Origin: Candidatus Omnitrophota bacterium
Lineage (GTDB): Bacteria > Omnitrophota > Gorgyraeia > Zapsychrales > Fredricksoniimonadaceae
Direction: 5' to 3'
Length of the DNA: 64,000 nt
Assembly (NCBI GenBank): GCA_963828495.1
Contig: CAWHFJ010000017.1
Location: forward strand, 148,342 to 212,341
The notes below the pieces were generated by a model, which saw nothing but the letters and a program-made list of their open reading frames with translations, made no database searches and was not told where the DNA came from. Every line of letters begins with the position of its first letter. The stretch's first letter is position 1. The translations under genes and the position numbers were made by a program. Below are positions 12,625-41,606 of this stretch, one piece after another.

Positions 12625-15600
12625 GTGAAAAAAATTATTCATTGCATCACAGCCATTGCATTCTTTTTCCTCTCCATTGTCCCCAGCCCCGGATTTGCTT
12701 TTAATGTCAATGTGGTCCAAGGCAATGCCACTGTCAGCACTAATGGCAATACCGTTACCATTACCGCCACCGGCCGTGCCATTCTTCAAGGTAATACCAG
12801 CATACCCTCCGGTGTAACCGTCGATGTGATCCAGGGAGTCAATGACATCATGCTGCGTGATATCACCGGCAGCCGCACGGATATTTTGGGCTCTCTGCTA
12901 TCCAACGGGAACATTATTTTGATCAACGCGATGGGCATTTTTATCGGCCAATCCGCCAATGTCAATGTGGGAGGGCTGATTGCCTCTACCCTGGATATGA
13001 AGAACAATTTATTCATGAGCGGCAACTATCAGTTTGAAAAAATTCCAGGTCTTAACCCTGCGGAGATCCTCAATGAGGCCAATATTAATATTGCCAATGG
13101 GGGATATATCATTTTATTGGCAGACCGAGTGGTGAACAAGGGAACGATTACGGCGTATATGGGAACAGTGGCGTTAGGCTCAGGCCAGCAAGCCACGGTT
13201 AGTTTTGATCAAGGGGGATTGGTCAATCTGGTGATAGATCAGGGCTTGGCGCAACAGCTGACCAACAGCAGTGGTAAAAGCAAAGCGCAGATTGTCAATA
13301 GCGGCAAGATATATGCCAACGGCGGACGGATCCAGATGACAGCGGAATTGCTGGAGACAACCCTTGAACAGATTGTGAATAACACCGGAGTTCTACAAGC
13401 CAATAATGTCGCTGAACAGGGAGGCATAGTTGAACTGACTGCCAGTGGCGCCATTAACAACAGCGGGACGATCCAAGCAGCCAGTATGATAGAGCAAGCC
13501 GAGACTTTTCATTCCACAGGGGTGCTGGATGTTGGTCATGGGTATTTTAACAATCTTGATGGGGCGATCAATATTTCTGGGTCTATTAGTGGGACAATTG
13601 CGGATGTAGGCGATATCGATTTGACCGGTGCCGTGAGCCTGACCGGAGACACCACCTTGCAGGCAGATTCCGGAGGCGCTCAATCCGGTGAAATTGTGAT
13701 GAACACCAACCCCTTGACAGGCAACAATTTCAATCTGACCATGTACACAGGAGAGAATGACACGTTAGACGGTTCTATCACAGGCGTTAATCTGCTGACG
13801 CTCAACTCTTCAACTGTCAACGACAAGATTTTTACCTCAACAGGCGCTTCTTTTAGTGTGAACACCCTGCAAACCAATAACTACGCGCTTTTTTCGCGTT
13901 ACCAGGGCAATGGCACTTCAAGTGATCCGTATATGATTTACTCGGATTCGCCTGTGTGGGGTGGATTGGAGTATATCGTCAATACCCCTAATGCTTATTA
14001 TGAATTGGCCAACAACATCAATGCTGCTGACACATCAAGCTGGAATTCCGGGGCAGGATTTACTCCCATTGGCAATAGCTCTACACCATTTAAAGGGACC
14101 TTCAACGGCAACAATTACACGATATCTAATTTATTCATTAACCTTTCTTCAACCAATGATGTTGGTCTTTTCGGCTATACATCAGGAGCTACCATTAAAA
14201 ATGTCGGATTGGTTAATGCCCATATCACGGGACAAAATTATGTCGGTAGCCTTGTCGGCTTTAATTATAATGCAAGCACCATCGACAACAGCTATGCCAC
14301 GGGCAGTGTCAGCGGGAGTGGTAATATCGTTGGCGGCCTGGTGGGTGAAAATGATTATTTAAGCAGCATCGTCAACAGCTATGCCACCGGTAATGTGAGC
14401 GGAAATAATGAAGTCGGCGGCCTGGTGGGTAGAAATTATTATACAAGCAGCATTACCGACAGCTATGCCACCGGTAATGTGAGCGGGAATAATACTGTCG
14501 GCGGCCTGGTGGGTTATAATATTAGATCAGGTCTCATCGACAATAGCTATGCTGTGGGTAATGTCAGCGGGAGTGGTAATCAGGTCGGCGGCCTGGTGGG
14601 ATATAATAATAATTTAGGCAGCATTACTAACAGCTATGCTACCGGCAGTGTCAGCGGGAATAATGACGTCGGCGGCCTTGTTGGTCGAAATTATTATTCA
14701 AACATCGACAACAGTTATGCCACCGGCAGTGTCAGCGCCGGTAGTAATGTCGGCGGGCTGGTTGGTTCCAACTCTTATTCAAGCATTGATAACAGTTTTG
14801 CCACTGCCGGCGTAAACGGTAGTAGTAACGTCGGCGGTCTTGTTGGTTCTAATTATTTGAGCAGTATCAATAACTCCTACTACACAGACTCCAATAATCA
14901 AAATGGCCTGGGTACTTTTGAATCTGGCGGCCCCAGCGCTTTCTATAATTCAAGCCATGCTGTCTACAATGGCGATACGCCCTGGGACTTTAACGGTTTA
15001 TGGAAGGATGGCGCAGGACTTGCGTATCCTACCTTAGTATGGCAGGGCATGAACAATGGCTCCTTTATCGGCGGCACTCCTGCTATTCCTTTTCTCATTT
15101 ATAATGTCAATCAACTGCAGTTTATGGACTATGAGCTTAGCGCATCTTTCCAATTAGCTTCGGACATTGACGCCAGTGCCGCCTCCGTCTGGAATGCTGA
15201 TAGCGGGTTTACTCCCGTTGGCAATAGCTCTACACCATTTACCGGTACTTTCAACGGCAACATTTACACGATTTCTAATTTATTCATCAATCTGCCATCA
15301 ACAGATAATGTCGGTCTTTTTGGGTATACATCAGGTGCCGGCATTGAGAATACAGGACTTATAAATGCCAATATCACGGGACAAAATAATGTCGGCGCCC
15401 TTGTGGGTTTAAGTACTAATTCAAGCAGCATCATTGGAAGTTATGCTGCCGGCAGTGTTAGCGGAAGTGGTGATCAAGTCGGCGGTCTTGTTGGATATAA
15501 TCTGAATTCAAGCAGTGTCGCCAATAGCTATGCCACCGACAGTGTCAGCGGGGGAGCTAATGTCGGCAGCCTTGTGGGTAGAAATTATAATTCAAGCATC

Positions 15601-39833: not shown

Positions 39834-41606
39834 ATGAATTCATCTTGCTTCAATGGGGATTATTGTGTCAATATGAATAAACGTTTTCTACTATTTTTCG
39901 GATTATTTTCAGTGGGGATGATAGCAGGACCGGCATTTGCTCTAGATCTTCCTGCCGGTATAAGCAGTGACATGCAAAGAGAAATAACCCAGCTGCAGGC
40001 AGAAGTGATTCAAGGCAAGGAGCGATTGGATCTTGAGCCGCAGGATTTGAAAAAAGCGGAAGTGCATGTGAAGCAGAATGAAGGGCCAAGCGAGTCGCAA
40101 GGTCCGGCGTTTAAAGTCAATGAAATTATATTTGAAGGGAATACCATTTTCCCGACTGAACTGTTACAATCGCTGGCCAAGCCTTATGAAGGCCGTGTCC
40201 TGTACTTAAAAGATTTTCAAGATTTGACGATGTTGATTACCTTGCGGTATCAAAGGGCGGGATACATAACCAGCCGGGCGTATATCCCGCCGCAAAAAAT
40301 GTACGATGGCAAGCTTGTTGTGGCTATTATGGAAGGAAAAGTGGGACGTATTTCTATGACAGGGAACCACTGGTTCTCAGACCATACTTACTTTGACAGG
40401 ATGAGTCTACAACAAGGGCAATTTTTTGATATACAGCAGTTAATGCTGTCTTTGCAGGACATCAACCAATTGCCGGATCGTGTCGTGAAAGCCTATCTTG
40501 AGCCGGGGAAAGAACAGGGGACATCGGATATTATTATCGTGGCCCAAGAGCAGAGCCCGTTGCATGCCTCGTATGAATACAATAATCGTGGGACGACGCT
40601 GACCCATCTATCGAGGGACATTCTTCATTTTACAGATAATAATTTGACCGGTCATGGGGACATGCTGCAAACGAGTGTGTCGATGGCGGACCAAAACTCG
40701 CTGTTAGGGGGTACGCTCCAGTATGTGCTTCCCAAGCCCAGAGAAGGCTTAACGTATTCATTGAGTGCAGGAGACAATTATAGCCGCCTAGAGAAGGATT
40801 TACGGCCATTGAAAGTGACCTCAACATCCTTTTTTGTGTCGCCCGGAGTGACGAAGAATTTTATCAAAACCTCGAACCTGAGTGTTGACGGATATGTCGG
40901 TTTTGAAATCAAAGATTCCAAGACCATGGTCGATCAAGACAAGTTGTCATTTGACCGTTCCCGGGTATTGGATATGGGGCCCAGGGTGGCCATAACTGAT
41001 AACTATGGCAAGACCTTTATGGCAGGAGACTTGCGTGGGGGAATACCGGACTTTTTAGGAGGGGCAGAGCTTCATGACCCTGAGGCTAGCCGTATTGATT
41101 CGGGAGGGGAATTTGTCTATATGACCAGCAGTGTGGACAGGATTAACCGGCTGCCTTTTGGATCTTATTTAGTATTGCATGGAGGAGGACAATACAGCCC
41201 GATGCCGTTAACCTCTTTGGAACAGTTTTATTTAGGCGGCATGTCTTCGGTGAGAGGATATCCTGAAAACGACAGTTCAGGAGACAGCGGATTAAACTTT
41301 TCAGCAGAGATACGTATCCCGCCTTACTTTATTCCGGCAGGATGGCATGTCATTAACAGCAAAGATAAAACGTGGCGAGAGGCGTTTTCGTTTGTAGCCT
41401 TTTTGGATGGCGGGCGGGTGTTTGATTACAAACGTCAGGACGAAGGCTCTGAAAAAGACAGGACGCTGGTGGGAACGGGTGTAGGGATCAGGTACTATGT
41501 AAGTCCGGACATCAATTGCCAGGCCGGCATAGGTTTTCCCATTGGGGACACCTCCAGTGATGATAAACACACAGAGCCGTATGTTTCGGCCAGAGTCGGA
41601 TTTTAA
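39834..41606 (+). CDS. ShlB/FhaC/HecB-type TpsB outer-membrane transporter (POTRA domains plus Omp85-like barrel)
   Basis: Signal peptide (MNKRFLLFFGLFSVGMIAGPAFA; the true start may be the ATG at 39873). POTRA-like VNEIIFEGNTIFPTELLQSLAKPYEGRVLYLKDFQDLTMLITLRYQRAGYITSRAYIPPQKM..GKLVVAIMEGKVG. Conserved barrel motif GGMSSVRGYPE. Terminal ...ARVGF. Confidence 0.88.
   Translation: MNSSCFNGDYCVNMNKRFLLFFGLFSVGMIAGPAFALDLPAGISSDMQREITQLQAEVIQGKERLDLEPQDLKKAEVHVKQNEGPSESQGPAFKVNEIIFEGNTIFPTELLQSLAKPYEGRVLYLKDFQDLTMLITLRYQRAGYITSRAYIPPQKMYDGKLVVAIMEGKVGRISMTGNHWFSDHTYFDRMSLQQGQFFDIQQLMLSLQDINQLPDRVVKAYLEPGKEQGTSDIIIVAQEQSPLHASYEYNNRGTTLTHLSRDILHFTDNNLTGHGDMLQTSVSMADQNSLLGGTLQYVLPKPREGLTYSLSAGDNYSRLEKDLRPLKVTSTSFFVSPGVTKNFIKTSNLSVDGYVGFEIKDSKTMVDQDKLSFDRSRVLDMGPRVAITDNYGKTFMAGDLRGGIPDFLGGAELHDPEASRIDSGGEFVYMTSSVDRINRLPFGSYLVLHGGGQYSPMPLTSLEQFYLGGMSSVRGYPENDSSGDSGLNFSAEIRIPPYFIPAGWHVINSKDKTWREAFSFVAFLDGGRVFDYKRQDEGSEKDRTLVGTGVGIRYYVSPDINCQAGIGFPIGDTSSDDKHTEPYVSARVGF

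Follow-up and report, generated by a model that had tools for sequence, protein, structure and literature searches.

The window analysed here, a 64,000-nt stretch of contig CAWHFJ010000017.1 (positions 148,342 to 212,341) from a Candidatus Omnitrophota bacterium, probably carries an intact type Vb, or two-partner, secretion (TPS) system that exports a fibre of repeated modules, about 9,067 residues long. The passenger gene, tpsA, occupies 12625–39824 and was delimited by frame stitching, Pfam matches and composition; the transporter gene, tpsB, follows at 39834–41606, and both lie on the plus strand, as do the genes described below that flank the pair directly. An earlier note on this DNA, made from the letters alone, had proposed such a TpsA/TpsB pair, which the secretion domain of TpsA and the adjoining tpsB support. 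The shaft of the passenger is built from 18 arrays of GLUG repeats. At about 9,067 residues and a predicted mass of about 922 kDa, it lies far above any characterised TpsA and is the largest member of its clade found, in line with the note's view that its size is unusual. The system is the extreme of a small undescribed family, not a new category of system.

The extent of tpsA follows from the chain of its reading frames. Stop-free segments of the three forward frames overlap end to end from 12625 to 39824 and form one gene lineage. Three-frame views of every junction resolve this lineage into 14 frame segments, with a one-base indel at 12 of the breaks and an in-frame TAA at the other; stitched across the breaks, it reads for 9,067 codons without a further stop. 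The note had let the gene run to 39824 with some 9,060 codons if read through, which holds for the lineage and its length but not for a single open reading frame (ORF), and although it spoke of a frame-corrected translation it did not state the 13 breaks present in the assembly. Translation would start at a GTG at 12625, with GAGG 6 nt upstream, and the 5′ 10.2 kb (12625–22851; 3,409 codons) form an unbroken frame. The product is very acidic, with 497 Asp/Glu residues against 92 Lys/Arg, and consists of 16% Gly, 14.5% Ser and 12.3% Asn. It contains eight cysteines in total and 479 tyrosines, about 100 of which stand at the NSYA position of the GLUG rung.

The N-terminus of TpsA carries the signals expected of a TPS passenger, as the note had read it. 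By inspection of the translation, the first 25 residues, MKKIIHCITAIAFFFLSIVPSPGFA, form a Sec-type signal peptide (12625–12699), with FNV starting after the cleavage site. A TPS secretion domain follows at 12799–13476. When the N-terminus is scanned alone, PF05860 (Haemagg_act) matches amino acids 59–284 at 45.2 bits against a cut-off of 33.5, and TIGR01901 scores 31.6 bits against 29.1; PF05860 is absent from the listing when the whole 3,455-aa first ORF is scanned. A TPS profile of the clade searched against the PDB matched EtpA, HxuA and HMW1 (E = 6e-93 to 5e-56). The AlphaFold2 model of the domain has a mean predicted local distance difference test score (pLDDT) of 83.3, and Foldseek superposes it on the secretion domains of EtpA, HMW1 and HxuA (8cpk, 2odl, 4i84) with E of about 1e-13 and TM-scores of 0.70–0.74, while its matches to HpmA and FHA are weak (FHA 1rwr, E = 0.04). 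Because both the clade profile and the model favour the former structures, the predicted domain is assigned to the HMW1/EtpA/HxuA subtype.

The adjoining gene encodes the partner. TpsB is an Omp85-family transporter with POTRA_2 and ShlB barrel regions; ShlB scores 86.9 bits, POTRA_2 scores 74.6 bits, and the SVRGYPE loop-6 motif is present. It also matches CdiB (6wim, E = 6e-18). The Haemagg_act and ShlB/POTRA matches, whose absence would have spoken against the note's reading, are thus both present. The gene begins 9 nt past the tpsA stop, so the ShlB/FhaC-type transporter that the note had placed there is confirmed, and in two short-read contigs (L001 and L002) tpsB is 100% identical to that of the window. 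Short-read data sets ERR11630400, ERR11571142 and ERR11748453 likewise hold flanks of 100% identity. L090, the closest relative, repeats the A–B arrangement, its tpsA and tpsB being 11 nt apart. Promoter and terminator scans around the cluster gave background-level signals, and an operon was not defined by them. The note had also called the A-then-B order unusual; this does not stand, since a TPS review documents varied operon orders, including hmw1abc and bcpAIOB (PMC5422565).

Downstream of the secretion domain, the passenger consists almost wholly of GLUG arrays, as the note had claimed. Units were counted with a hidden Markov model built from the units themselves. This model gives 141 matches, 139 of them within 18 arrays (14242–38549) and two as singletons inside long linkers. 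The unit has a 28-aa consensus, VGGLVGYNYNSSSIDNSYATGSVSGSNN, and a period of 27–29 aa. The number of arrays agrees with the note, whereas its count of 8–15 units per array does not, since 4–15 were found. Arrays 1 to 6 lie at 14242–14901, 15391–15798, 16657–17385, 17902–18387, 19246–20067 and 20929–21594; arrays 7 to 12 at 22483–23126, 23646–24283, 25331–25819, 26819–27452, 27988–28650 and 29500–30744; and arrays 13 to 18 at 31591–32100, 32671–33333, 34182–34672, 35527–36036, 36885–37703 and 38220–38549. Pfam Glug (PF07581) reaches E = 3.7e-189 on the first segment alone.

The arrays are separated by linkers, again as described in the note, and these group into three length classes, near 160, 282 and 330 aa. 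Each linker ends in an "F.G.FNGN.YTISNL" cap, which Pfam matches as the C-terminal part of Peptidase_M26_N. The note had looked to a structure of one array plus linker; an AlphaFold2 model of amino acids 1063–1760, an array of nine units flanked by one long and one short linker (pLDDT 80.6), predicts that the array is a parallel beta-helix with one three-stranded rung per 28-aa unit. The best Foldseek match of the array model is 3n6z, the GLUG domain of Bacteroides ovatus BACOVA_03286 (E = 3e-7), and M26 IgA1 proteases come next, through their N-terminal domains. Neither the linkers, of whichever class, nor the last 420 aa of the protein matched a Pfam or NCBIfam family above cut-off; the weak matches to G8, Amnionless and DUF5300 in these regions were set aside as below threshold. 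At the nucleotide level the modules are diverged copies, 65–96% identical, and the longest exact internal repeat is 367 bp (18559–18925 and 20239–20605). Linkers 4 and 5 share 95.6% of their DNA with a synonymous divergence (dS) of 0.11, which marks them as the site of the latest module duplication or gene conversion.

The passenger ends in a C-terminal region of about 420 aa (38550–39824), made up of beta-helix-like repeats, a conserved motif and a tail. The motif, "...LSYLNVKDSQA...C-x3-C..GNN.GW", is conserved among clade members: its LSYLNVKDSQA part is common to P0197, P0198, P0199 and P0201, and the first three of these also have the Cys-x3-Cys pair, which is absent from P0201 and from L010. 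In the window, this pair lies at 39513–39527 (aa 8965–8969; C..(D)C.D.GNN.GW), about 100 residues from the C-terminus, and is the sole closely spaced cysteine pair of TpsA. The C-terminal disulfide loop of HMW1 tethers its passenger in the TpsB pore; speculatively, and by analogy, the Cys-x3-Cys pair might act as a similar disulfide "stopper" for the fibre.

These features suggest a secretion route of the established TPS kind. The Sec signal peptide would carry TpsA into the periplasm, where, from its family membership, the HMW1/EtpA-type TPS domain would dock on the POTRA domains of the adjacent TpsB. The passenger would then be threaded from the N- to the C-terminus through the TpsB barrel, with folding on the outside supplying the drive. 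Outside the cell, one module after another would fold, as the modelled fold suggests, until 18 parallel beta-helices of GLUG units stand in a row with beta-rich linkers between them, giving a rigid, acidic rod with hardly any cysteine. At 4.8 Å per rung, the 139 GLUG rungs by themselves would measure some 65 nm or more. The gene itself probably grew by tandem duplication of whole modules. The most likely role, as a best guess, is adhesion or spacing at the surface of an uncultured PVC (Planctomycetes–Verrucomicrobia–Chlamydiae)- or Omnitrophota-like bacterium, a placement drawn from the labels of its nearest relatives.

Whether this gene is intact turns on the 13 frame disruptions, which span 22852–36383 and were located in the three-frame views. 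They comprise eight one-base deletions (near 22853, 23731, 28005, 28070, 28189, 33876, 35119 and 36382), four one-base insertions (near 27335, 27546, 34293 and 34540) and the in-frame TAA at 28402–28404. The indel sites are mostly runs of one to four identical bases, with one in a G6/G7 run. These disruptions are most likely long-read consensus errors, and the true gene is then intact. The ratio of 12 indels to a single stop substitution argues for consensus error rather than decay. An independent long-read contig, L089 (ERZ25039480 contig_108906), comes from a strain about 94% identical and is collinear with 23899–39556; of the 11 sites that can be compared, it clearly restores the frame at nine, among them the TAA, which it reads as TAT, and it has different errors of its own.

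Non-repetitive DNA nearby allows a direct comparison. About 3 kb downstream of tpsA, the window cysD has one-base deletions at 42508 and 42887, and the extra bases are present in every other assembly that covers each site (L005, L006 and L008 at both, L007 at 42887 only). In L005, L006 and L008, cysD is an intact 293-aa gene, and over 3,857 bp the short-read contig L007 differs from the window by no mismatch and one gap, at 42887. As judged from such comparisons between assemblies, the window consensus has indel errors at about 0.3–0.7 per kb in places. Farther downstream, one-base indels relative to L005 also occur at 48506, 49913, 50161 and 52488.

The best-surviving alternative, still an unlikely one, is that tpsA is a genuine, recently inactivated pseudogene in a decaying tpsA–cys locus, so that the first 3,409 codons alone could be made. 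The clustering of all 13 disruptions in the 3′ 17 kb would fit this, as would the two breaks in the adjacent cysD on the same contig and the lack of cysD, cysN and the porin gene in the L089 strain, which makes the locus dispensable in some strains. Against decay stand the indel-dominated error signature, the near identity of L007 over 3.9 kb save for the frame-restoring cysD base, and the in-frame state of L089 at most of the testable sites. The contig names and the relatives also point to Nanopore-only assemblies: relatives assembled in this manner ("contig_NNNN" names, MFD isolates) show similar fragmentation, and the L010 orthologue, from a short-read metagenome-assembled genome (MAG), has module types like those of the window in an unbroken ORF of 3,643 aa. 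Finally, the paralogous modules show ratios of nonsynonymous to synonymous divergence (dN/dS) of 0.19–0.43 at dS of 0.1–1.06, which speaks against loss of function. A homology search with the frame-corrected 27.3–28.8 kb segment, which sought near-identical short-read fragments over six of the disruptions, returned only relatives of at most 66% identity, the listed matches being shorter than about 960 aa. Programmed frameshifting or phase variation was rejected, as the sites are runs of one to seven bases without repeat tracts and differ between assemblies.

A second alternative concerns the module number, which might be an artefact if the assembly expanded or collapsed repeats or fused paralogous modules into chimeras. 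The gene is indeed highly repetitive, and short-read assemblies break within it (L001 and L002 end at about 39.0–39.3 kb). A short-read contig from a 99.25%-identical strain (L006:1–1497) joins a segment like 27019–27534 (94.6%) to a diverged 3′ end like 38586–39556 (85%), a join that reflects modules reshuffled at the strain level or else a chimera formed over repeats in the short-read assembly. Two facts make an artefact very improbable. The modules are 65–96% identical and their longest exact repeat, at 367 bp, is easily spanned by long reads; such diverged copies are neither chance nor a simple collapsed repeat. In addition, the 3′ 15.7 kb (23899–39556) has the same order and the same length in L089.

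It is equally remote that the passenger carries an enzyme or a toxin, in the manner of IgA1 proteases or of CdiA-like contact-dependent inhibition, instead of serving as an adhesin. Partial Peptidase_M26_N matches at each array start, the frequent delivery of toxins by TPS systems (PMC5422565) and a last stretch of about 100 residues without an assigned family could suggest such a function. The M26_N matches, however, cover the non-catalytic GLUG cap only, and the 9,067 residues contain no HExxH, VENN or other catalytic, toxin or pre-toxin signature. The tail matches no toxin family, the C-terminal region is conserved across the clade rather than polymorphic, and tpsB is followed by cysC, leaving no small immunity-type gene.

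Several points weigh against an intact, secreted adhesin fibre and temper the reading preferred here. In the alignment, the NPNG position of the TPS domain, a motif called conserved among TpsA proteins (PMC5422565), reads NAMG in the window, so that Asn and Gly are kept and Pro is lost; the close relatives P0001 and L010 have NTNG there. L089 is itself noisy and about 6% diverged, and it does not clearly restore the frame at sites J6 and J12, while the sites at 22853 and 23731 lack independent coverage. The error status of the 13 disruptions is drawn from comparisons between assemblies and is to that extent probable rather than proven. For the 5′ 11 kb (12.6–23.9 kb), no second assembly bears on the module count. 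The adhesin or spacer role follows from architecture alone, and the literature searched held no experimentally defined function of a GLUG array.

The family in which this gene stands was traced from its N-terminus. A HMMER scan with the first 460 residues found 11,646 TPS relatives, a handful of them above 50% identity; loci were scanned with a profile from a four-sequence TPS alignment. Five of the closest relatives share one plan, a TPS domain followed by n GLUG modules. In the clade there is about one module in P0201 (1,298 aa), about two in P0199 (1,544 aa), about three in P0197 and P0198 (2,036 and 2,710 aa) and about seven or eight in L010 (3,643 aa). With its 18 modules, the predicted window TpsA is the largest member found here of a clade that ranges from 1 to 18. 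Its closest relative is P0197 (locus L090), at 75% identity, and among reference genomes the nearest loci belong to two MAGs, one of Candidatus Omnitrophota (59%) and one with the label Planctomycetales (54%). The note had pointed to related genomes and MAGs as a place to look, and relatives combining a TPS domain with GLUG modules were indeed found there (L090, L010 and the P-series), with tpsB alongside in L090. In the Candidatus Omnitrophota MAG MFD01476.bin.2.120 (contig_16581, 287–336 kb; L003 and L009), a span of about 50 kb holds at least two TPS-GLUG genes, one of them open over more than 4,235 aa, so that a relative has giant GLUG passengers in more than one copy.

The combination of the two domains is not confined to this clade. 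Proteins with PF05860 and PF07581 exist in public databases, among them a Vreelandella neptunia protein named "GLUG motif-containing protein" or "two-partner secretion domain...", and GLUG units lie downstream of the TPS domain in eight of the 80 best reference-genome TPS loci, including those of Collimonas humicola, Limnohabitans and Roseateles. GLUG arrays are also common on other export or anchor modules (type IX secretion system, PKD) and in archaeal proteins. Literature searches found no paper linking GLUG to two-partner secretion, TpsA or adhesins. Two preprints on giant genes of Omnitrophota (bioRxiv 10.1101/2023.11.21.568195 and 10.64898/2026.06.07.730766) and a survey of "huge proteins" mention neither GLUG nor two-partner secretion. 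The note's idea of an undescribed adhesin architecture thus keeps its footing in the literature but loses part of its novelty to the TPS+GLUG proteins already in databases.

Among the characterised systems close to the window pair are HMW1/HMW2 of Haemophilus influenzae and EtpA of enterotoxigenic Escherichia coli, which share its TPS-domain subtype by profile and fold and also have beta-helical passengers; the hmw1abc operon has the same A-then-B order. Unlike these, the window passenger is 6–9 times longer, carries GLUG modules instead of HMW/EtpA repeats and has NAMG in place of NPNG, and its neighbourhood holds sulfotransferase-like candidate accessory genes rather than an HMW1C-type glycosyltransferase. 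With FHA (FhaB–FhaC of Bordetella), the TPS prototype, it has in common the signal peptide and TPS domain, the beta-helical passenger shaft of great length and, in the Omp85 transporter, a pair of POTRA domains and the VRGY loop. FhaB has 3,590 aa. The FHA-type TPS domain, with its NPNL motif, is the weak match already mentioned, and the FHA repeats R1/R2 are unrelated to GLUG.

The repeat itself links the window to another set of proteins. M26 IgA1 proteases and BACOVA_03286 (3N6Z, 6XJA, 7UVK) have the same PF07581 repeat, the same parallel beta-helix as the modelled window arrays and the same Peptidase_M26_N-type cap at the array start. Each of them has a single GLUG domain, while the window has 18 on a TPS passenger with no catalytic domain; the streptococcal M26 proteases couple GLUG to a metalloprotease domain and leave the cell by Gram-positive export routes. 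The proteobacterial TPS+GLUG proteins of Vreelandella neptunia (P0035), Collimonas humicola (L050) and Limnohabitans (L066) share the layout, with a TPS domain, a GLUG array and a TpsB nearby (tpsB upstream in L050, downstream in L066). They measure 2,500–3,250 aa, have 3–18 GLUG units detected close to the TPS domain, keep the canonical NPNG unlike the window, and are known from automatic annotation only. The giant proteins described in the two Omnitrophota preprints (bioRxiv 10.1101/2023.11.21.568195 and 10.64898/2026.06.07.730766) are likewise very long, surface-associated and from the phylum of the nearest relative, but differ in having Archaeovorin-type, Dockerin-type and SecA-helicase-containing architectures.

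The genes flanking tpsAB form a distinctive set. Upstream lie two arylsulfotransferase (ASST)-like genes, paralogues on either side of a TauE/SafE permease gene (10659–11402, assigned by Pfam), directly upstream of tpsA. The first (9274–10644), with N-terminal transmembrane segments, scores 62.0 bits with PF14269 and 62.4 bits with PF05935; the second (11405–12517), with no signal peptide, scores 84.2 and 41.4 bits, against cut-offs of 27 and 24.2 bits for the two families. NCBIfam assigned neither a name. Downstream of tpsB follow cysC (41616–42170), cysD (42136–43020, with its two one-base deletions), cysN (43018–44208) and a porin O/P gene ending at 45703. In exact-sequence look-ups, the second ASST-like protein and CysN read from a GTG start were unmatched, while CysN read from an ATG start was matched.

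Since TPS operons can include passenger-modifying enzymes such as HMW1C and CdiC, and the HMW1/EtpA operons carry the glycosyltransferases HMW1C/EtpC (PMC5422565), the ASST-like genes might, by analogy, play a parallel role. Judged from recurrent synteny, these genes, together with those for TauE and CysC/D/N, may constitute a sulfation branch accessory to the TPS pair. A stronger version, in which the CysC/D/N proteins supply 3′-phosphoadenosine 5′-phosphosulfate (PAPS) and the two ASST-like proteins, with TauE, sulfate the giant passenger or a partner molecule as part of its secretion, is doubtful. What argues for it is recurrent synteny only, seen in the window, L010, L100, L106 and L098; ASST-like genes recur beside TPS and CysC/D/N genes on several unrelated contigs, and the synteny holds in about five of 11 informative loci. 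The ASST pair is orthologous in L010 (69% and 66% identity; L010:7380–9917), directly upstream of the tpsA orthologue, in a neighbourhood that otherwise differs from the window. Among the ASST loci from a metagenome scan with an ASST alignment, an ASST gene immediately follows that for TpsB in L100 and L106, L098 has the order TpsB...TPR-ASST-CysC-CysD-CysN, and CysC adjoins ASST in L096 and L104.

Other loci speak against the sulfation link. L090, with the closest TpsA relative, lacks the ASST, TauE and Cys genes, and no TPS gene lies within 10 kb of ASST in L102, L103 or L111. In L102, the ASST pair is preceded by a gene for a protein of 1,894 aa, which was considered as a candidate hidden passenger and proved unrelated on checking. 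Relative to window positions 41737–45711, L089 has a truncated cysC and then a coiled-coil gene at 45.7 kb. Because it lacks cysD, cysN and the porin gene, the PAPS genes are dispensable or variable beside the same tpsAB pair. Literature searches found no paper coupling ASST with TPS. If the sulfation reading is true, the branch would be analogous to HMW1C/EtpC glycosylation, and the window would hold the first sulfated TpsA.

Two further features of the window lie apart from this cluster. At about 56000–64000, the G+C content rises from about 0.43 to 0.58–0.68 and the genes turn to the minus strand; the high-G+C end includes an FG-GAP/ASPIC protein (56857–58863) and an HTH_17 protein. This jump could be a foreign island or a chimeric contig join. 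In the same strain, L005:8781–10186 has a 1.4-kb insertion at window position about 49028, encoding HTH_Tnp_1 and rve (an IS3-like transposase), that the window lacks.

Taken at the strength given above, these findings would extend the two-partner pathway, thought to export FHA-type helices of one to five thousand residues, to a megadalton GLUG fibre in uncultured PVC-group bacteria. They also carry a practical warning, since long-read indel errors make tpsA appear as about eight ORFs and automatic annotation will miss such proteins. Fibre length would be tuned by module duplication, from 1 to 18 modules across the clade, and the GLUG repeat gains a structural context and a tractable family in which its binding can be tested. 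The recurrent ASST-like and PAPS genes beside TPS genes offer a testable lead to what may be a new passenger modification.

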